Shown: positions 7,975-22,992 of the stretch, one piece after another
Layout: each line of letters begins with the position of its first letter
Numbering within the stretch: position 1 is the stretch's first letter
The notes under the pieces: generated by a model
What the model saw: the letters and a program-made list of their open reading frames with translations, nothing else
Told to the model about the DNA's origin: nothing
Databases searched by the model: none
Translations under genes and position numbers: made by a program
Origin: Longivirga aurantiaca
GTDB lineage: Bacteria; Actinomycetota; Actinomycetes; S36-B12; CAIYMF01
DNA: 32,000 bases
Assembly: GCF_042660085.1 (NCBI RefSeq)
Contig: NZ_JBHSTI010000008.1
Coordinates: 1,080,001 to 1,112,000 of the forward strand
Direction of reading: 5' to 3'

Positions 7975-9474
7975 ATGAACCCATCGCCGCGTCTGCCGTT
8001 TGCGTGGCTCTCGTCCATACGCGGTCGAGTTCAGGCGATGGTTGTATCGAGTATGTGCGAGGTGGACCTGGTGGAGGCGGCATCGCGCAAGTCCTGGGCC
8101 AAGAGGAGCAACGTCCCTCCTGATCTTCTTGCCACCGGACTGCTCACTGACCTCATCGGGCCGGAGGCGGCGTTGCTGAGCTTGCGGCTGGGCACAGCCC
8201 ACCTCGCGGGTGTTGCCGACGTCTCGAACCCGCCGACGGGGCCGGCGACCCTCTTTCCAACTGGTTCACATCTACAGGTCACGGTTCGGCACGACCTCAT
8301 GGAGCACGGTCGCTTCGACTGGTCTGGACAGTTGCTCGACTTGGGCAGCAGCGGCAGCGGATTCGGTTTCGACAACTCCCGTCAATGGAAGGTCAGCGAC
8401 TTCGACCTCAACATCGGCAAGACTCGCGTCCACGTCGTTCACGCCAGTGCCCAGCGCTCGACGGACCTGTTTGACCCGCAACCACAGTTCGGCGGCATGT
8501 GCGAGGGAATCGAATGGGGCGATCAAGCGGTCGCACGTCATTGGCGCGTCTGGCTCGTCGGCGTACCGAAGCCGCACGAGCAGGTGACCACAACCCTTGC
8601 CCAGGTCCAGGTTTCGTTGGTTACCGACCGACGCGCAGCCGAACCCAACCATGGCGACAGCCAACCGCCACCTGACCTGCCCTACGTCACACAAGTAGCG
8701 CTGGACTTCGGCCATGACGTGGGGGCTGCTCAGGTCGACGAACTCCTTGAACGTCACCTCATGTGGCTCCTTGACATCTACTCCGGTCGCAGAGTTATTC
8801 CTCTCGCAGTGCTGCGCATCGCCCCCGACGGCACGGCTATGGGAGGGCACTGTCGCGACTACGGCCGACCGCTGGTGCGCAGAAGTCGCCGAGCCGTATC
8901 CAGCAACGATCTACAGGCGTTTCTCAACGATGTCGTACCCACCTGGGACGCAATGACGGAAGACGATCGCCACGTAGTCCGAGTCGCCACTGGGGTCAGG
9001 CACGCTTCCTCACAGATCGAATCGGAGGCGTCAGTAGTTCTCGCCGCGACCGCGCTCGAGCTCCTCGCCGGTGAGTGGCTCCCGCCCACCAAGGCAAGCT
9101 ACGAGCTCACGAGGAGGCAGAAGAAGGACATCTCAGATGCGCTTACGAGCGCCGCTCAGGGAATCGCTCCTAACAGCGAGTTCGCCAGCAAGATCACCCA
9201 GATTGCAGGGAACATGTTCCGCCGCCCCGCCGCTGACCAACTTGGTCGCCTTCTGGGTCATCTCCAGGTGCCCATGAGCGAAGCCGAGGTTGGCGACTTC
9301 GTGAAGCTGAGGAACGATCTCATCCACGGCCGCCTGGCACAACGCAGCACGCAGGACAAGACGGAAGGCATGCTCCGAGGGCAGGCCATGCTGATGGGTT
9401 GCCTCCTCAGCCGGCTGGGTTACCGTGGCTCGGTCTACAACGAGGCCAGCCATCGGAACTACCGCCTGCCCTAG
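7975..9474 (+). CDS. hypothetical protein with a C-terminal HEPN-like domain (499 aa)
   Basis: The C-terminal helical region ends in FVKLRNDLIHGR, an Rx4H HEPN-type motif. The ~350-aa N-terminal region is unassigned. The domain order resembles ApeA-type HEPN proteins (tentative). The start is uncertain; 8038 is also possible. Confidence 0.65.
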   Translation: MNPSPRLPFAWLSSIRGRVQAMVVSSMCEVDLVEAASRKSWAKRSNVPPDLLATGLLTDLIGPEAALLSLRLGTAHLAGVADVSNPPTGPATLFPTGSHLQVTVRHDLMEHGRFDWSGQLLDLGSSGSGFGFDNSRQWKVSDFDLNIGKTRVHVVHASAQRSTDLFDPQPQFGGMCEGIEWGDQAVARHWRVWLVGVPKPHEQVTTTLAQVQVSLVTDRRAAEPNHGDSQPPPDLPYVTQVALDFGHDVGAAQVDELLERHLMWLLDIYSGRRVIPLAVLRIAPDGTAMGGHCRDYGRPLVRRSRRAVSSNDLQAFLNDVVPTWDAMTEDDRHVVRVATGVRHASSQIESEASVVLAATALELLAGEWLPPTKASYELTRRQKKDISDALTSAAQGIAPNSEFASKITQIAGNMFRRPAADQLGRLLGHLQVPMSEAEVGDFVKLRNDLIHGRLAQRSTQDKTEGMLRGQAMLMGCLLSRLGYRGSVYNEASHRNYRLP

Positions 9475-12395: not shown

Positions 12396-13187
12396 GTGAT
12401 CACGCATGAGGACCTCGACTGGTGGCTCGAGACCGCCCCCGCCTTGACCTGGACGTTCGCCAAGACATACGCCGACACGGCCCCGCACGAGTACGTCGTC
12501 GCCGGGCGCAACGGCTGCCCTCTGAGCCATGGCGACTTCGTACGGGCGGCCAAGGTCATCGCCACGTTCGGCCGCCCCGCCAAGTTCTACTCGATGACCG
12601 GCATCTACCTCACAAGCCGGGACGGGGGACTGAAGTGGTGGACCATGGACGCCGACCTCGACAGCACCGACCTGATCAACCAGGCCACCACCGACCGCGT
12701 CTACGGACCCCAGGACGCCCCCAACACCCGCACCGGGTCCACCGTTCCGGAGGACGCACTCGCAACCGAGTACGACCGCGCCCGCGACCGCCGGTGCGAC
12801 GAGATCCTTGCTGAGCACATCCGCCGCCTCTTCCCGGAGGGCAGTCCAAGGACGCTGGACATCGGATGCGGCACCGGTCTGCCCCTGGACTTCGGCGTCA
12901 TCGACGCCGGCACGTACACCGGCCTGGATCACAGCACCGCCATGCTCAACATGCTCGTGCGGAAGCACCCGCACGTACGGGCTCTCATCCCTGCGTCCTG
13001 GAACGAGGGCGTCGTCATCGGTGCACCGTTCGACCTTGTCCTCAACATCGAAGGCCCGGACGTGGACCCCGACCAGATGCAGCGACGGAGCTCCGGCTGG
13101 GTGATCACCGCGCGCGACGGAGACGTCGCTGTGGTGCCTGGGAAGGCGCGCGACACACGGTCCGGCACGGTTAGCGTCTCGCCATGA
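12396..13187 (+). CDS. class I SAM-dependent methyltransferase-like protein with an unassigned N-terminal domain (263 aa)
   Basis: Motif I LDIGCGTGLP (nt ~12855-12884) followed by TGLDHS. I saw no DPPY/NPPY or PC-type DNA-methyltransferase motif. The N-terminal ~110 aa (WTFAKTYADTAPHEYVV...KWWTMD) is conserved-looking but I cannot name it. Confidence 0.8.
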   Translation: MITHEDLDWWLETAPALTWTFAKTYADTAPHEYVVAGRNGCPLSHGDFVRAAKVIATFGRPAKFYSMTGIYLTSRDGGLKWWTMDADLDSTDLINQATTDRVYGPQDAPNTRTGSTVPEDALATEYDRARDRRCDEILAEHIRRLFPEGSPRTLDIGCGTGLPLDFGVIDAGTYTGLDHSTAMLNMLVRKHPHVRALIPASWNEGVVIGAPFDLVLNIEGPDVDPDQMQRRSSGWVITARDGDVAVVPGKARDTRSGTVSVSP

Positions 13188-14683
13188 CGGATTCGACTCC
13201 TGTACCGAACCAGGCCGGGGGACTGCTGGCCGCGCTGGTCCCGTTCGGAGTGCTGCGTCAGCCCGAGGTCGCCCTCACCACCGGGATCTGTTGGGTACTT
13301 GGCCTGGACGGGGCGGCGGGTGCGCTCGACGCTCTCATCGCCCGAAGCGGCATCACCCCGGACAGCGCAGGCCGATGGAGGGGCGAGGTGGTCGGTGACG
13401 GTGGACGCTCCGATCTCGAGTACGCCTGGGGCGATCCCCCGACAACTCGAGTCATCGTCGAGGCCAAGATCGGCCACAGCCTCACCCCGGAGCAGTTGGT
13501 GGGCTACGCCGACCGGCTGCCTGACACAGGTGGGCTCCTGGTCGTGCTGGCACCGGCCGCGCGCAGAGCCGAGGCGCTGGAAGTGGTAGCTCGCTGCCGA
13601 GACCTCACCGCCGGCCCGGCCACGTTCGCCGTCTGGACCTACGACGAGGTCCTGGAGCGGCTCGAAGCCGCCCTGCCCCATAGCGGCGACGTCGCCCAGC
13701 TGCGCGGCCTCGTCCAAGCGCACAACGCCACGGACATCGACCCGTTCCTCCCCGACGAGCTCCTCGAAGCCAACGCGTCGCGTCGTGAGGACGTGTGGTG
13801 GGTCGTCGACCACGCCTCATTCGGCATCCGCGAATCCCGGCAGCCCTCCGGCACCGACTGGAACCTCCTGCATCGTCGGTACCTGCCCGTCGGCAACTAC
13901 AGCGCGGCCGTCGCCGTCGGCGTCGGGAGGAAGGATCCGGGCAACGACCCGACTCGGCCATGGGCGTGGCTCCGTGTCGCCGGTGCCAGCGCTCACGGCC
14001 GCCTCGCTCGACGCGCGCTCGCCAGCATCAGACCCGGAACTGAGGAGACCAAGGACGAGACTTGGCTGCCGCTGAGGATCGAGCCGGGCCTCTACGGTAG
14101 CCAAGCGGCGGAGCGACTCCGATCAGCGCTGGAGAGCCTCATCGACGACCTTGCGGCCGCCATCACCGTCGAGATGGAGCACCAGCTTGACCAGGCCCGC
14201 CATCTCGACACCGCCATGCTCGACGGCGTCCTGGGTATCGGTCCCCTCGAAGCGAACGATCTGCTTGCCGGCTCCGAGCGGCGCCATGAGGACATCTGGA
14301 CCCTGCTGACCGAAGCCAGCCGCCCCCTTTACCCGGACCGGATCTACCCGGTCCAGACCAGCGACGAGGACTACGAGCGCGTGCGCTACATGCGGGTTGG
14401 CGCGTCGGAGGCGCACATCGCGACGTGCCTCCTGCGGCGGGGGAGGAACGACTCCGCTCCGGCCGCGTGGCTTCGGGTGCACCGGAGCACCTCACATGCC
14501 GAGATCGGTCGTCGTGTTCTCGAGGAACTGGCTCCAGGTCAAGTGGTCGACGATCCCAACGGGTGGGCGGTTCCCGTGCGCATCCCCACCGGTGTCGGTG
14601 GGCCGGCGATGCTCGCCGAGGTCCATGCACAGATCAGCGAGCTGTTCACGCGCTTCGCCGCGTCCATCGTTCGAGGCTCGTAG
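13184..14683 (+). CDS. PD-(D/E)xK nuclease-like protein with an internally duplicated C-terminal region (499 aa)
   Basis: Its ATG overlaps the upstream stop (ATGA at 13184-13187). N-terminal GRSDLEY...RVIVEAKIG is a D...ExK core. Two tandem ~150-aa segments each begin LL..(R)RED(V/I)W and contain AWLRV...SH...RR.L...PG...W.(L/V)P.RI..G. Confidence 0.75.
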   Translation: MTDSTPVPNQAGGLLAALVPFGVLRQPEVALTTGICWVLGLDGAAGALDALIARSGITPDSAGRWRGEVVGDGGRSDLEYAWGDPPTTRVIVEAKIGHSLTPEQLVGYADRLPDTGGLLVVLAPAARRAEALEVVARCRDLTAGPATFAVWTYDEVLERLEAALPHSGDVAQLRGLVQAHNATDIDPFLPDELLEANASRREDVWWVVDHASFGIRESRQPSGTDWNLLHRRYLPVGNYSAAVAVGVGRKDPGNDPTRPWAWLRVAGASAHGRLARRALASIRPGTEETKDETWLPLRIEPGLYGSQAAERLRSALESLIDDLAAAITVEMEHQLDQARHLDTAMLDGVLGIGPLEANDLLAGSERRHEDIWTLLTEASRPLYPDRIYPVQTSDEDYERVRYMRVGASEAHIATCLLRRGRNDSAPAAWLRVHRSTSHAEIGRRVLEELAPGQVVDDPNGWAVPVRIPTGVGGPAMLAEVHAQISELFTRFAASIVRGS

Positions 14684-14857
14684 AGACATCGGAGATCGAG
14701 CGCGCGGAAGTCGAGTCAGGCGATGCGCTCCTGCCCCGCGGCGGCGGTGGCGCCTTCGCTGTCGGACCCGGGCGAGATCATGAGGTCAACGGACCGTCCA
14801 GACGATGCTGGCAACCATCAGCGTCGGGGCACAGCCGTCGAGATCTGAGGAGTCACC

Positions 14858-15802
14858 ATGGATGCCCGAGAGGCCAAGCGGCTTGCCAACGAGCACTTGC
14901 GTGGTTCTCGCCTGACTGCATCCCGGGCCTCGCGCCACCGCGACGCCTGGGTCGTGTCCTACGTCGACGCGGACAACCCGGACGTGATGCTCGACGGCGG
15001 AGGCCTCATCGTGACGATGGACGGAGCGGTGATCGACGTAAGCTCCGTGCCCGGTGAGATCGACCGCGTGCTCGACGAGAGAGCACCGCGAGGGGAGGAT
15101 CCCGACCTACCGCGCGACGAGGCGGAGGAGCTGCGCGCCCTCATCGCGGCTCGGCTGCCCTGGCCCGGCGTCCTGGAGGAACCCGTCGAAGCGTTCGCCG
15201 CCGTCGAGCAGCTGCGCAGTGCTGGTCGTGAGGTCTTCCCGGCGCGCGGGCTGGAACTCGCCGCGCTCGCGCTGGTGCCCTTCCAAGAAGTGCGTGTGGT
15301 GATCGTCGGCCTTGACCCGTATCCGACGCCGGGTCATGCGATGGGACTGGCGTTCTCCGTTCCACCCGAAGTGCGGCCGCTGCCGGCGGGCGTGCGGAGC
15401 ATCCACGCCGCAATGCGGCACGACGGCTTCGACCCTCCCGACCACGGCGACCTGTCCGGCTGGGCCAGGCAGGGGGTGCTTCTGCTGAACCGGGCACTCA
15501 CCTACGAACGAGGACGGAAGGCTGGAGCGCACCTGCCCATCTGGCGAGACTTCACGGACCAGGTGATCCGAGTGCTAAACGAGCGGGACGAGCCGGTGGT
15601 GTTCGTTCTGTGGGGGAACGAGGCGCAGAAGGTCGGCGCCCTCGTCGACGCCTCGCACCACCACACCGTGACGGCACCGCATCCTTCTTCCCGGGGGGCC
15701 TACCGGAAGGCATCCCAGGACGCGGGGACGTTCACCACGGTCAACCGGCTCCTCGGTGCAGAGATCCACTGGGAACAGGCAGGCGGGCGCTCCCACTCGT
15801 AG
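14858..15802 (+). CDS. uracil-DNA glycosylase family 1 paralogue with an extra N-terminal domain (314 aa)
   Basis: The C-terminal ~220 aa matches the Ung layout: VRVVIVGLDPYPTPGHAMGLAFSV (canonical GQDPY), GVLLLNRAL, VLWGN, APHPSSRG (canonical HPSPLS). The N-terminal ~95 aa (AKRLANEHL...WVVSY...LDGGGLIVTMDGAVIDV) looks YrhB/immunity-protein-like, which is tentative. Confidence 0.9.
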   Translation: MDAREAKRLANEHLRGSRLTASRASRHRDAWVVSYVDADNPDVMLDGGGLIVTMDGAVIDVSSVPGEIDRVLDERAPRGEDPDLPRDEAEELRALIAARLPWPGVLEEPVEAFAAVEQLRSAGREVFPARGLELAALALVPFQEVRVVIVGLDPYPTPGHAMGLAFSVPPEVRPLPAGVRSIHAAMRHDGFDPPDHGDLSGWARQGVLLLNRALTYERGRKAGAHLPIWRDFTDQVIRVLNERDEPVVFVLWGNEAQKVGALVDASHHHTVTAPHPSSRGAYRKASQDAGTFTTVNRLLGAEIHWEQAGGRSHS

Positions 15803-15931
15803 GTTCGCCAGAAGCAGTCGGACCACCAGGGACGGAACGTTCCGCGGGTCGTCAGCCGCAATGTCATCGTGACTGTCGGATGGACATTGATTGACCGACG
15901 ACACTAACCCTGAGTACGTGGCGGTCTAGCG

Positions 15932-18139
15932 ATGGACAGCAGAGAATCGCGGGACAACTTCCTCGACGTCTTCTTCGGGCCTGGCAATGACCTCGGGATA
16001 GACCCGAACACCATCGAGGGCGCTGATCCATCGCACAACTTCCTGAAGGACCTGATTCACGACGTGAGGGAAGGTTCGCCGTGGCCCTGGCTCTTGCCTC
16101 GGCGGGTAGGTGACGGAGCACAGCCAACCTGGTACGCCATTGCCGCCGACTACGCCGATTTCCGACGCCTTGGCGCTGAGTTGGCCGCAGTGACAGGCGA
16201 TCCGTACTCGGACTTCTCTCCCGAAGCGGCATCGCTCGTATCGTCGGATCCAGTCGAGTTCGCGATCTTGAGTCTCGGTGCTAACGCCCACGCATACCGA
16301 TTCACTGCGTCGCCAGGACAGGTGGTCCCACTTCGAATCGCCCTGGAACGACTTCACCGCGCCTGGACTCTCCGACCGAAGCGCGGGTGGGTCCGCGTTC
16401 GCCCGTTGGGGCGCGTTCTACGAGACTTCGAACTTGCCTTGGCTGGGCACAAGTACGAGTCGGCGGTCGAGGCGATCGGGGAGATCGAGCGAAACCGGCA
16501 ATTGACGGCGACCAACCTCCTCTTTCTGCGCTTCCGGTTGGCAGCGACCTTCGAAGATCCACGAGACGCACTCAACTTGCCGGATGTGGACACGCTCATC
16601 ACCATCAGGCGACCCCTCGCAGTGACGACTGCGCTTCAGCAGATCGTCTTCGATGCAAATCTGGTCGATACCGATGGGCCGGTGCCTGTTGACCAGGCCA
16701 TCGAAATCTTCAGTCGGGACTTGGCCCAGTCATACGGTCCACTGTTCACCACCCTCAGAGCGAGCGACGACGCGTCGGCCGTCCGCCTGCAGATGCTCGC
16801 CACAGTCAACAGCGCTCGGCCAAACGAGGCGTTCGCTGACGAGGCGCTTGCGCGACCCTGGAACGCGGGTGTTCGGTCTTGGTTGCAGGCCGTTTGGGAT
16901 CGGCGCCAGCAGCGCTCCGACTCAGCGCGTACGGCGACCCAGAACTTCCAACTCGGCGATCTGGACGGGGCCTTCGCGGTCGCTCTCGTTGATGAACCGA
17001 GCCAACTGCGCGCGAAGATCCTCCTGGTTTCAGCAGTCTCCATTGGTACGAAAGACGCGGCACAGTCTGCGCTCGATGCTTTCGATGCACTGTCGCTGGA
17101 GGAGCAGGGGCAACTTGGGCTCGACGGTCTGGTCAAACTCGCCCTACTGGAACTCCGCGAGCGGACTCGCTTCCTTCCAAGCACGTGGGCGGACTGGTTC
17201 GATCGCATTGCGCAGCACCCCCATCGAGAGACCATCGACTTGCTGGACGAGGCGCTGCCAGGCTGGATGGCGTCGGAACTGGACTCTGATCAAGGTGTTG
17301 CGGCCCTCACCAACCTGTTCCTGGCAACCCGCCCGGGCGATCAGATGGCTCTCGTTGCCGACGCCGTTCCTAGAGCACTGACCTACTGCCAACGGTCGGG
17401 CGCTTCCGACACACGCTTGGCGCCACTTCATCATGCGCTGCTGGCCGTCCTCACATACGAGTCTGATCTGACCGCTACCGACCTGAGCACCATCTCTGAG
17501 ATCGCCGCGACTGTTCTTGGCTGCGGGATGGATGAGTCGCAGTACTCGGCGCTGCTAAGAGACCTGTTGGACGTCTGGACGCGCGTGAAGTCCTGGCGCC
17601 GCTGCGATTGGGCGGCCGACGTGCTGGACGCCGTTGTTTCGTCGCCCGCACCCGTGCCTGCCGAGCGTGATGCATTCGTGGTCGACCTCTACTCCCAATT
17701 GACTGCATACGCCGATCGTGTGAACGAGACCCAGCGCGTGTTGCTTCGCCTCCTTGGTCGGGAGGCGAGCCAACCAACCGAAATCTGGTCCTCACCCACA
17801 GAATCCGAGGACGAGATTGGTGGCACTGAGTCGTCTCCACTGTCGGGGTTGACCGTTGGCATCTACACGCTGGACGAGGGTGCGGCCGCCACAGTCCGAG
17901 GGTGGATTCTGGAGGTCGCTCCGTCGGCCCGCGTGGTGCTGAACCATGAACACGATGCCTCCGAGCGACTCACGGCGATGGTGAGAAGCAGCGATATCGT
18001 CGTTGTGGGGTGGGCGACGGCGAAGCACGCCGCCACCAATCACATCCGTGACGTGAAGCCGGACAGCACGCAAGTGGTCATGGCTCAAGGTCGCGGGGCG
18101 ACTGGTCTATTTCGAGCAGTCTTGTCTGCGATGGCGTAG
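15932..18139 (+). CDS. large hypothetical protein (735 aa)
   Basis: Long ORF with coding-type composition, mostly helical-looking. The C-terminal ~100 aa (LTVGIYTLDE...SSDIVVVGWATAKHAATNHIRD...QVVMAQGRGATG) looks like a small Rossmann-like alpha/beta module reminiscent of DUF2325 (tentative). Confidence 0.75.
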   Translation: MDSRESRDNFLDVFFGPGNDLGIDPNTIEGADPSHNFLKDLIHDVREGSPWPWLLPRRVGDGAQPTWYAIAADYADFRRLGAELAAVTGDPYSDFSPEAASLVSSDPVEFAILSLGANAHAYRFTASPGQVVPLRIALERLHRAWTLRPKRGWVRVRPLGRVLRDFELALAGHKYESAVEAIGEIERNRQLTATNLLFLRFRLAATFEDPRDALNLPDVDTLITIRRPLAVTTALQQIVFDANLVDTDGPVPVDQAIEIFSRDLAQSYGPLFTTLRASDDASAVRLQMLATVNSARPNEAFADEALARPWNAGVRSWLQAVWDRRQQRSDSARTATQNFQLGDLDGAFAVALVDEPSQLRAKILLVSAVSIGTKDAAQSALDAFDALSLEEQGQLGLDGLVKLALLELRERTRFLPSTWADWFDRIAQHPHRETIDLLDEALPGWMASELDSDQGVAALTNLFLATRPGDQMALVADAVPRALTYCQRSGASDTRLAPLHHALLAVLTYESDLTATDLSTISEIAATVLGCGMDESQYSALLRDLLDVWTRVKSWRRCDWAADVLDAVVSSPAPVPAERDAFVVDLYSQLTAYADRVNETQRVLLRLLGREASQPTEIWSSPTESEDEIGGTESSPLSGLTVGIYTLDEGAAATVRGWILEVAPSARVVLNHEHDASERLTAMVRSSDIVVVGWATAKHAATNHIRDVKPDSTQVVMAQGRGATGLFRAVLSAMA

Positions 18140-20512: not shown

Positions 20513-20626
20513 TCCCGTGCTGTGGGCACCGTCGGCTACGGTGCTGGAGTCAGGTCTGTGGGGGTCTAAGGGGGCTTGTGTGGACGGCGAAGTCGAGCTG
20601 GTCCGAGACGGGGACGGCCTCCCGTC

Positions 20627-21832
20627 ATGGGCGACCCTGCGGCCGTCGACGCGTTCCTGGCCTCGGAGGGGCTTACGGGCCTCGACCTAGGACTGCCGCG
20701 CCTTCGGTCTGTCATGAACGCCGGCTCCACCGCAGCCCAGGCGGGCTCGCAGCTGGCCTCCGCATCCGGCCGGTGGGTGAAGCTGAGCAAGGAGTCTGCG
20801 AAGGCCATCGACCAGTACGGGCTGAGGCAGAGCTCGAAGAGCGGCCTGAGCACGGGAGTGCTCAGAGGGAAGTCCGGCCAGATCAAGGGCTTCGTGGAGT
20901 TCGCCAAGACCCCGGGGGCTGCTCTCGCCAACCCGGCAGTGCTCGCGGGAGTCGGCGGGATCATGGCCCAGATGGCCATGCAGCAAGCCATGAACGAGAT
21001 CACCGACTACTTGGCCGTCATCGACGAGAAGGTCGATGACATCCTGCGCGCGCAGAAGGACGCTGTGATGTCGCGGATGATCGGTGTGGGTTTCGTGGTG
21101 GACGAGGCCATGGCGCTGCGTCAGCACCGCGGCCGAGTTGATGAGACGACGTGGTCCAAAGTGCAGGCCTCACCGGCCACCGTCGCCGAGACACAGGTGT
21201 ACGCACTGCGGCAGCTTGATGCCCTCGCCGAGAAGATGGAGCGTCACAGCAAGGTGGGCGATCTCGCCAAGATCGCCAAGGACGCAGAGTCTTCGGCCCA
21301 GGAATGGCTCGCAGTGCTTGCGCGCTGCGTCCAGCTGCAAGACGCCATCGCCATCCTCGAGCTCGACCGCGTTCTGGACGCCTCGCCTGACGAGCTCGAC
21401 GGCCACCGCATGGGTCTTCGGGCCGCCCGCGAAGATCGGCTGGCGCGGATCTCACGGACCACGCAGCAGCTGCTCGACCGGATGACTTCCGCGGCCGCCG
21501 TGGCCAACACGAAGGTGCTGCTCCACCCGACCACGGCTCCCGGGGTCGTCCATGCCACCAACCAGGTCGCCGACGCCGTGGTCGAGTTCGACCGTCGACT
21601 CGGGCTGGAGCACGAGCGTCAAGCGCTGGAGGCCCGAACGTGGACCGAGGCCGCCACCGACGCTCGGGACAAGGCCCTCGAGACGGGCGCGGACGGGTTC
21701 GACACCGCGAAGCGGCTGGGCGGCCAGTCCGTTGACCGTGTCAAGTCCGTGTCGGGTGGTTTCACGAACCGCATCACCGATCGAGCGCGGCGGACGCGTT
21801 CGTCGGATGACGACGCGGCCGCCGAAGACTGA
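20627..21832 (+). CDS. hypothetical, predominantly helical protein (401 aa)
   Basis: Trimmed to the ATG at 20627 (MGDPAAVDAF). A hydrophobic/Gly-Met-rich segment (NPAVLAGVGGIMAQMAMQQAMNEI) is followed by a long helical region. No family recognised. Confidence 0.7.
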   Translation: MGDPAAVDAFLASEGLTGLDLGLPRLRSVMNAGSTAAQAGSQLASASGRWVKLSKESAKAIDQYGLRQSSKSGLSTGVLRGKSGQIKGFVEFAKTPGAALANPAVLAGVGGIMAQMAMQQAMNEITDYLAVIDEKVDDILRAQKDAVMSRMIGVGFVVDEAMALRQHRGRVDETTWSKVQASPATVAETQVYALRQLDALAEKMERHSKVGDLAKIAKDAESSAQEWLAVLARCVQLQDAIAILELDRVLDASPDELDGHRMGLRAAREDRLARISRTTQQLLDRMTSAAAVANTKVLLHPTTAPGVVHATNQVADAVVEFDRRLGLEHERQALEARTWTEAATDARDKALETGADGFDTAKRLGGQSVDRVKSVSGGFTNRITDRARRTRSSDDDAAAED

Positions 21833-22011: not shown

Positions 22012-22992
22012 ATGAAGCAAGGGTTGGCGGATCGCGCCGCGGGCGCGCTGCTCGGGATGGCGGCCGGCGACGCGCTCGGTGCGGGCTACGAGTTCGGGCC
22101 TGCGCTGTCGGCTGCTACTGAGGTCGAGCTGATCGGCGGCGGCTCGTTCGGCTGGGCGCCGGGGGAGTGGACCGACGACACGCAGATGGCCGTGCCTCTG
22201 CTCGAAGCCGCGGAACGGGCTGCCACATCAGGTACCGCGCTGACGGACCACCTCGATCACGTCGCTCGTCGATGGGTCGACTGGGCGGTCACGGCGGCCG
22301 ACGTCGGCAACCAGACCCGCTCGGTGATCTCGACGGTTCGACACTCGGGCGACGTGTCGGCCGCGGCGCTGTCGCAGGCGTCGCACGCCCTGCACGCGTT
22401 GACCGGTCGCACCGCCGGCAACGGATCGCTGATGCGCACGGCCCCCGTCGCGCTGGCCTACCTCTCCGATCCCGCGGGTCTCGCTTCGGCAGCCCGAGAG
22501 GTCAGCTCTCTGACGCACTGGGACGACGACGCCGGCGACGCGTGCGTGCTCTGGTGCCTCGCGATCCGGCATGCGATGCTGCACGGCGCCTTCGACCTCG
22601 CGGGTGGGCTCGACGCCCTGCCCGAGGAACGGCGTACGACGTGGGCCGCGCGGATCGCAGAGGCCGAGAAGGCGCGGCCGCGGGACTTCCCGGAGAACGG
22701 CTGGGTCGTGCACGCACTTCAGGGGGCATGGTCGGCGATCACGACCACGAAGGTGCCGGACGGCGACCCGCCGCTGCACCTGCGGCTCGCGCTCGAGAAC
22801 GCCGTGCGCGGCGGGGGTGACACCGACACGGTCGCCGCGATCGCGGGGCAGCTGCTCGGTGCTCGCTGGGGTGCATCGGCCGTGCCGATGGGGTGGACCG
22901 CGAAGCTGCACGGGTGGCCGGGCCTCACCGGTCAGGCGCTCGCCGAACGCGGCGCAGCGCTGGCTGGCGGTGCATCGCGGCTCAGGGCCTGA
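22012..22992 (+). CDS. ADP-ribosylglycohydrolase family protein (326 aa)
   Basis: The ATG is preceded by GGAGGGG. Motifs LGMAAGDALGAGYEF, EWTDDTQMA, GNGSLMR and GGGDTDTVAAIAGQLLGARWG are typical of the DraG/ARH family, with the metal-binding acidic residues present. Confidence 0.9.
   Translation: MKQGLADRAAGALLGMAAGDALGAGYEFGPALSAATEVELIGGGSFGWAPGEWTDDTQMAVPLLEAAERAATSGTALTDHLDHVARRWVDWAVTAADVGNQTRSVISTVRHSGDVSAAALSQASHALHALTGRTAGNGSLMRTAPVALAYLSDPAGLASAAREVSSLTHWDDDAGDACVLWCLAIRHAMLHGAFDLAGGLDALPEERRTTWAARIAEAEKARPRDFPENGWVVHALQGAWSAITTTKVPDGDPPLHLRLALENAVRGGGDTDTVAAIAGQLLGARWGASAVPMGWTAKLHGWPGLTGQALAERGAALAGGASRLRA

Follow-up and report, generated by a model that had tools for sequence, protein, structure and literature searches.

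What would a bacterium gain from a second uracil-DNA glycosylase (UDG) that keeps the uracil pocket of the housekeeping enzyme but carries an arginine where that enzyme has a leucine to insert into DNA? The question is raised by a gene on the forward strand of Longivirga aurantiaca contig NZ_JBHSTI010000008.1, at positions 14858 to 15802 of the stretch analysed here (the window: 32,000 nucleotides, positions 1,080,001 to 1,112,000 of the contig). Comparison with its relatives places the 314-amino-acid product in a distinct, rare and mostly actinobacterial clade of family-1 UDGs, in which both of its hallmark substitutions appear as features of the clade and not as private mutations. Tentatively, and with rather more doubt than confidence, we propose that the enzyme may act as a stand-alone, uracil-specific, inhibitor-resistant antiviral glycosylase. 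The gene and its catalytic part have the following features:

14847..14852, + strand: Shine-Dalgarno-like GAGGAG, read in the sequence, 5 nt 5' of the ATG.
14858..15802 (stop codon included), + strand: the whole gene, encoding a 314-amino-acid accessory family-1 UDG with an N-terminal domain (list of open reading frames (ORFs), family matches and the 100% identical protein cluster P0001).
15188..15772, + strand: family-1 UDG catalytic domain, residues ~111-305 (phmmer against the Protein Data Bank (PDB), E ~1e-38; Foldseek target-normalised template-modelling (TM) score ~0.8).
15308..15322, + strand: motif A, G-L-D-P-Y (canonical GQDPY), with Leu152 for Gln and with Asp153 and Tyr155 kept (from the sequence).
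15389..15391, + strand: Gly178, at the position of E. coli Ser88, a phosphate contact in the Pro-rich loop (HMMER alignment to 1eug).
15479..15490, + strand: LLLN uracil-specificity strand, Asn211 kept (invariant in 75 of 75 clade members).
15680..15697, + strand: motif B, H-P-S-S-R-G (canonical HPSPLS), with His275 kept and Arg279 for the intercalating Leu (sequence and alignment).

The catalytic part was supported by sequence and structure searches. Residues ~113-302 match the Ung proteins of V. cholerae and E. coli with E ~1e-38 in phmmer searches of the PDB, and the protein scores 43 bits on the Pfam UDG family, above the cut-off of 24.3. The ung models of NCBIfam give 155-169 bits overall: the protein lies above the cut-off of NF003588 (157.1 against 143), narrowly below that of NF003592 (161.7 against 162) and below that of TIGR00628 (ung; 158.3 against 185.75). 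An AlphaFold model built on 30 homologues reached a mean predicted local distance difference test (pLDDT) score of 87.7, and Foldseek aligned it to the UDGs of M. tuberculosis, C. burnetii, V. cholerae, E. coli and human with target-normalised TM scores of 0.79-0.84 and E ~1e-19. As modelled, the protein has the UDG alpha/beta fold with family-1 topology; its sequence identity to family-1 enzymes such as those of E. coli, M. tuberculosis and human is 37-48%. It shares with the family-1 enzymes of E. coli, M. tuberculosis and human the fold, the catalytic Asp and His, the pocket Tyr and Phe and the LLLN Asn, and it differs from them in the Leu of motif A, the Arg wedge of HPSSRG, the Gly in place of Ser88 and an extra acidic N-terminal module of ~100 amino acids. 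It also falls outside the motif-B definition of the family and the TIGR00628 equivalog cut-off, and it is encoded by a second copy on a defence island.

That the gene is an accessory Ung paralogue, as the initial annotation held, is borne out by the rest of the genome, which is 3.67 Mb in size and 96% complete. A canonical ung encoding GQDPY and HPSPLS motifs lies on the same contig, 750 kb from the query (contig 8:345849-346439), so that the gene in the window is not the housekeeping copy. The housekeeping product scores 188.8 bits on TIGR00628, above the 185.75 cut-off, and is 42% identical to the query. When 120 UDG domains were placed in a maximum-likelihood tree, the resident Ung fell on the canonical side and the branch to the query clade received 100% support in the Shimodaira-Hasegawa-like approximate likelihood ratio test (SH-aLRT); the query is therefore not a recent duplicate. 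Judging by sequence, it is a second, horizontally acquired accessory copy. Of 63 genomes that represent species of the same family, almost all contain one ung only, and three have an extra accessory-type UDG, each accompanying a canonical ung and each of a different subtype (the query; GIDPY with HPSARG; GIDPY with HPSAPGL). The latter two come from two other genomes of the same genus (L012, G033:C3:1890628-1891308, GIDPY/HPSARG; L013, G009:C31:113308-114006, GIDPY/HPSAPGL); both proteins have the acidic linker and lack the N-terminal domain described below, and two TGA stops were flagged in the extended frame of the G009 match. The fused type was found in 1 of 401 evenly sampled genomes of the class, which is the genome of the query. 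Separately, every sampled genome of one genus of large-genome actinobacteria (family f28, genus g43) has two canonical-type ung matches, and ung duplication without an island context has thus become fixed in some lineages.

The two substitutions described at the outset are exact. Codon 152, at 15311-15313, is CTT (Leu) within GLDPY, and the HPSSRG of 15680-15697 aligns without gaps opposite H187-P-S-P-L191-S of E. coli Ung and also to V. cholerae Ung; the Pro and Ser beside the wedge are replaced as well. A third change, absent from the initial list, is that of the phosphate-pinching Ser88 to Gly178. The residues reported as kept, the catalytic Asp153, Tyr155, Phe166 of GLAFSV, Asn211 of LLLN and His275, are all present in the query.

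These differences acquire their meaning at the level of the clade, to which the two substitutions belong. A search of 5.8 billion proteins recovered ~65 relatives that form it, mainly from Actinomycetota (Microbacteriaceae, Nocardioides, Ornithinimicrobium and Knoellia; taxonomy by source names only), and column counts were taken over 75 clade sequences. None of the residues that form the pocket or take part in catalysis varies: Asp, Tyr, Phe, Asn and His each occur in 75/75. The wedge column 279 holds Arg in 63 sequences, with Leu in 4, Pro in 3, Trp in 2 and His and Phe in 1 each, and is followed in column 280 by Gly in 53. Motif A column 152 reads Gln in 46, Leu in 24, Ile in 4 and Arg in 1, and column 178, the equivalent of Ser88, reads Ser in 46, Gly in 19 and Ala in 10. 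GLDPY with HPSSRG is the mark of the query's nearest subgroup, in which the Ser88 equivalent has been replaced too, and GQDPY with HPAARG is that of the wider clade. Selection has kept the uracil pocket unchanged and has reshaped the loops in contact with the DNA minor groove. A hypervariable wedge was considered as a signature of an arms race and was unsupported, Arg being present in 84% of the clade. In a profile search of genome contigs with full-length alignment, canonical ung genes dominated and no accessory-clade member was among the matches listed. The searchable literature yielded none of the clade motif strings in a UDG context, and no account of a bacterial subfamily of family 1 with an Arg wedge or of the N-terminal domain that it carries.

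In family-1 enzymes, the pocket Tyr excludes 5-substituted pyrimidines and the Asn reads the N3/O4 face of uracil. Because this pocket is invariant in the clade, the most likely substrate would be plain uracil. Excision of 5-hydroxymethyluracil (hmU), 5-hydroxymethylcytosine (hmC) or glucosyl-hmC, to which the initial annotation had pointed, is less likely, as the Tyr and Asn, by which 5-substituted pyrimidines and cytosine are shut out, are unchanged in all 75 sequences.

The closest parallel to the changed surface comes from poxviruses. Vaccinia virus D4 reads GIDPYP and HPAARDR, with R185 at the Leu position, and is highly uracil-specific and not inhibited by Ugi, an insensitivity that its authors put down to the incompatibility of Arg with the hydrophobic cavity of Ugi (PMC4450493; PMC1936997). 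D4 deviates at the same two hallmark positions as the query, and many clade members read HPAARG. It differs in its altered LLLN, in having neither the Pro-rich and Gly-Ser loops nor an N-terminal domain of this kind, and in acting as a polymerase processivity subunit bound to A20. D4 was absent from the phmmer matches of the query against the PDB and from its top 50 Foldseek matches; with no specific kinship detectable, the likeness is best read as convergent. The inhibitors Ugi, p56 and SAUGI follow one strategy, in which the protruding Leu or Phe of Ung is captured in a hydrophobic pocket, and the key Ung residues for p56 are His187, Ser189, Pro190 and Phe191 (PMC3902945; PMC3711442). Ung of M. 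tuberculosis, a canonical actinobacterial enzyme, has been crystallised with a proteinaceous inhibitor (PDB 2zhx).

From these parallels we propose the following sequence of events for the inhibitor-resistant role. The gene would have been acquired horizontally as single-gene cargo of defence or mobile islands and would work beside the housekeeping Ung. The enzyme would flip uracil from DNA and cleave it, with Arg279 as the intercalating plug, like D4 and several other UDG families. The Arg wedge should render it insensitive to DNA-mimic inhibitors, since Ugi, p56 and SAUGI bury a hydrophobic wedge residue in a hydrophobic pocket. A cell could then keep uracil excision while phages neutralise Ung, whether these have deoxyuridine (dU) genomes or replication intermediates vulnerable to uracil excision, and the resulting abasic sites and breaks would fall on phage DNA. 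Two kinds of precedent make the proposal plausible. First, UDG-superfamily glycosylases act as single-gene antiviral effectors in Brig1 (PMC11078745), Brig2 (10.1101/2025.10.29.685425) and Brig3 (PMC13160076). Second, the uracil-cutting EndoV-Bs of Bacillus subtilis restricts the Ugi-encoding dU phage PBS1 (PMC13648612). EndoV-Bs resembles the role proposed here in that a repair-type uracil-acting enzyme, independent of the Ugi-sensitive Ung, restricts a dU phage; it differs in its unrelated fold and chemistry, nicking the strand without base excision, and in its place in a toxin-immunity locus.

The region preceding the catalytic domain consists of two parts:

14858..15082, + strand: N-terminal domain, residues 1-75, consisting of a helix, a four-stranded antiparallel sheet and a helix (predicted with confidence in AlphaFold models).
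15083..15187, + strand: acidic linker, residues 76-110, ending in a conserved PWPGVL (pLDDT, alignment and charge).

The N-terminal fusion described initially is real and, on the evidence of the ratio of nonsynonymous to synonymous substitution (dN/dS), translated and under purifying selection, with a folded part of ~75 amino acids followed by the linker. Against three homologues, dN/dS was 0.13-0.27 in the N-terminal domain and 0.13-0.40 in the UDG part. A scan of positions 14500-16100 for promoters and terminators found no consensus site. Residues 78-86 are predicted to be disordered (pLDDT <50). The net charge of the query is -4 in the domain and -5 in the linker, -9 together; domain and linker are acidic in 30/30 aligned members, most of which have a UDG core that ranges from neutral to basic. 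When 1.84 billion representative proteins were searched with a profile of the domain, only 60 clusters matched. Nine of the ten matches longer than 250 amino acids have UDG motifs, the exception being P0140 (355 amino acids); those of ~200-240 amino acids are mixed, and the remainder are short and probably fragments. For practical purposes, it is a domain dedicated to UDGs. Relatives with the same domain and an HPSPLS or HPSGLS loop branch basally on the canonical side of the tree, and many Arg-wedge members are without the domain; the fusion can therefore be separated from the wedge change.

The likeness to YrhB and immunity-type domains seen in the initial annotation is weak. The domain is similar in size and alpha+beta layout to YrhB/Imm35 (PF15567), and over 76 columns it aligns collinearly with E. 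coli YrhB, but no significant match was obtained: hhalign gave this alignment a 10% probability (pairwise E 0.003), the query domain had no Pfam match even at E up to 10, and Imm35 was matched in 1 of 8 family members (E = 0.027), the other seven having no Pfam match. Foldseek searches of the domain against the PDB and BFVD returned nothing significant, with none below E = 0.04; the best of the non-significant structural hints were PepSY- or cystatin-like helix-plus-sheet folds and small uncharacterised phage proteins. Ugi, p56 and SAUGI were not among the top 50 structural matches. Imm35 is moreover linked to papain-like toxins, none of which is present at the query locus.

One might instead read the protein as non-catalytic, either with the UDG fold used for DNA scanning or protein docking or with an Imm35-like N-terminal domain that serves as an immunity or inhibitor protein. 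D4 provides the precedent for a structural role, as a processivity factor, and the weak Imm35/YrhB resemblance points the same way, Imm35 having been proposed as a peptidase-inhibitor immunity domain. This resemblance is below significance, however, many clade members do without the domain, the loci have no conserved partner gene, and neither the catalytic Asp and His nor any other part of the pocket varies in the clade, which argues for retained catalysis. We consider such a role very improbable.

For the proposed antiviral glycosylase, the acidic domain and linker could control how DNA reaches the basic groove or could attach to a protein of the host or of a phage, and their function as a regulatory, gating or partner-binding module, with which their charge is consistent, is speculative. 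The wider account, in which a true family-1 Ung lineage became a stand-alone antiviral effector by keeping its pocket, where the Brig enzymes rebuilt theirs, swapping the inhibitor-bound wedge and loop surface to Arg (convergently with D4) and adding an acidic gating or targeting module, is one that we hold as possible and rather doubtful.

The defence-island setting reported for the gene holds. A mosaic defence island spans ~700 to 26,200 of the window, with a GC content of 62-73%. It contains McrC and McrB, two HNH enzymes (one a restriction enzyme of the type acting on phosphorothioate DNA), a HEPN/RES protein, an orphan DpdD, the PADLOC candidate families DUF2971 (PDC-S31), PDC-S11 and DUF429 (PDC-S44), and an ADP-ribosylglycohydrolase. 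Upstream of the window by 7-18 kb are two helicase-like ORFs with sub-threshold DpdE matches (C8:1061820-1063421 and C8:1072157-1073290; open frames of 1199 and 755 amino acids), and the island probably extends in that direction. Two ORFs of the window, 7975-9474 and 13184-14683, are both exactly 499 amino acids long and on the same strand; they were ruled out as paralogues (BLASTP E = 0.75).

Loci of other clade members are of the same kind. We inspected 11 loci by eye, that of the query and ten others, and all 11 lie in defence or mobile islands, each with different neighbours. Represented among these contexts are McrBC, Wadjet, CBASS, type I and type IV restriction, NERD helicases, a KAP NTPase, integrases and transposases. 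Among the ten, the neighbour sets comprise Z1/DUF4420/Dcm with Mrr and SLFN-like helicases; Wadjet with a KAP NTPase; a preQ0-synthesis cluster with an integrase; NYN with a NERD helicase; integrases with transposases; a PD-(D/E)xK protein with an AAA ATPase; a D5-primase integrative element with type I restriction; and CBASS. An all-against-all BLAST of the ORFs from 10 loci found no gene common to all, and the UDG is therefore read as a stand-alone unit. The only recurring neighbours in this comparison were an ADP-ribosylglycohydrolase (3 loci), a 418-amino-acid protein (2) and a NERD helicase (2). The 418-amino-acid protein is encoded in the window at 20576-21832, upstream of the ADP-ribosylglycohydrolase gene. 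In a metagenome-assembled genome of Microbacteriaceae, a homologue of ~412 amino acids is encoded 4 kb downstream from the UDG homologue (L005:12719-13957); both proteins are without a family assignment. A phage or plasmid origin was unsupported: phages in INPHARED gave ordinary UDG-level matches only (up to 43% identity, none over the N-terminal domain), no relative of the domain was found in IMG/VR, and no match over it in the plasmids of PLSDB.

The same islands may be read without any part in phage defence, the enzyme being a back-up or mobile-element-borne repair glycosylase that removes uracil from host or island DNA, for example when the cell is stressed or the element replicates. Horizontally acquired genes accumulate in islands, so that the setting among defence genes could be incidental, and some loci resemble integrative elements more than defence islands, namely L034 (an integrase, an excisionase-type helix-turn-helix protein and a D5_N primase) and L032 (integrases, a transposase and a resolvase). 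Duplication of ung without defence is common, one actinobacterial family in the class sample always having two copies; the uracil pocket is fully conserved; and models of the type used in the Prokaryotic Genome Annotation Pipeline (PGAP) would call the protein a uracil-DNA glycosylase (NF003588 above cut-off). Repair alone, on the other hand, leaves unexplained why a non-canonical wedge and remodelled inhibitor-binding and DNA-groove loops are fixed beside a kept pocket, why a dedicated N-terminal domain is conserved, and why the gene is so rare among genomes, although one would expect a function of value in repair to spread or persist. We regard this explanation as unlikely, though a serious contender.

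Directly downstream of the UDG gene, and outside the unit, is one neighbour that bears on the choice of substrate:

15932..18139, + strand: dpdD (NCBIfam DpdD, 424 bits against a cut-off of 300).

A tie to a Dpd system was rejected: DpdA and DpdB had no match in the genome, which is near-complete as given above, DpdE had sub-threshold matches only, and dpdD is beside the UDG in 0 of the 10 other loci. A second 7-deazaguanine-related neighbourhood was observed on JGI contig Ga0645943_0000033 (L009:876-5377), where a QueC/QueE/QueD/FolE preQ0 cluster lies ~2.6 kb from the UDG homologue, together with HNH and DndB-like genes. The window dpdD and this Que cluster make two such neighbours, which may be a coincidence in islands of mixed gene content. 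In 3 of 10 loci, an ADP-ribosylglycohydrolase gene is found within 0.03-6 kb of the Arg-wedge UDG (window 22012-22992; L143:13641-14597; L144:5676-7133), the window copy being 62% identical to that of L143 and 51% to that of L144. A loose, recurring linkage of glycosylase and ADP-ribosylglycohydrolase in actinobacterial defence islands is possible.

These neighbours invite comparison with Brig1, whose homologues are mostly actinobacterial (PMC11078745), and with the ADP-ribosylglycohydrolase genes that adjoin both the Brig1 and the Brig3 glycosylases (PMC11078745; PMC13160076). Like the query, Brig1-3 are single-gene glycosylases in defence islands with such genes nearby. One could accordingly imagine that the query, in the manner of the Brig enzymes, acts not on uracil but on a modified base of phage DNA, be it hmU, hypermodified thymidine, hmC or, via dpdD, 7-deazaguanine. 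Brig1-3 show that the UDG fold can be retargeted, and Brig1 homologues share the actinobacterial bias; motif A of the query subgroup has lost its Gln to Leu; two loci have the 7-deazaguanine-related neighbours; and related ADP-ribosylglycohydrolase genes recur near clade UDGs. Yet Brig1-3 are remote, structural relatives of UDG with pockets rebuilt for glucosyl-hmC, hypermodified thymidine or hmC, whereas the query, set apart from them by their descriptions, is a true family-1 homologue, 40-50% identical to true Ungs, with its uracil pocket unchanged and with Tyr155, Asn211, Phe166 and His275 invariant in 75/75 sequences. D4, with Ile in motif A, is still strictly uracil-specific. The dpdD adjacency is unique to the window, where the rest of the Dpd system is missing, and a purine such as 7-deazaguanine misfits the pyrimidine pocket, as is generally known of family-1 UDGs. 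Retargeting to a modified base is in our judgement improbable.

Several points also weigh against an inhibitor-resistant antiviral glycosylase. First, we know of no dU phage or Ugi-like inhibitor for phages of these actinobacterial hosts, although no search for them was made. Second, UDG families without a role in defence normally have an Arg wedge too, so that this feature by itself implies no arms race, and within the clade the wedge is fairly stable and not hypervariable. Third, the loss of the Ser88 equivalent and of the motif-B Ser and Pro might simply lower activity. Fourth, the association with defence genes was judged by eye at the 11 loci, without statistical control against canonical ung loci, and PADLOC, with models of 2023 that are older than the Brig reports, has no model matching the query UDG. 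Lastly, uracil excision, inhibitor resistance and antiphage action are all predictions for the clade, drawn from sequence and from analogy.

Antiviral glycosylases are a new and fast-growing theme (Brig1-3, Dag1/2). To our knowledge, it was function or structure that led to the discovery of each of them, and in every case the pocket is rebuilt for modified bases. The enzyme of L. aurantiaca contrasts with them as a sequence-recognisable Ung in which the uracil pocket is kept and only the surface exploited by Ugi, p56 and SAUGI is changed. Even if it proves to be no more than a back-up for repair, family 1 gains an uncharacterised subfamily with an Arg wedge. If it is both inhibitor-resistant and antiviral, it would provide a family-1 UDG that is naturally insensitive to Ugi, together with a new regulatory domain specific to UDGs, actinophages would be predicted to include some with Ung inhibitors or dU genomes, and a decoy-proof paralogue of a housekeeping enzyme would represent a new type of counter-counter-defence. 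Should this be true, bacteria would counter anti-repair proteins of the Ugi type with paralogues of the targeted repair enzyme that escape inhibition.

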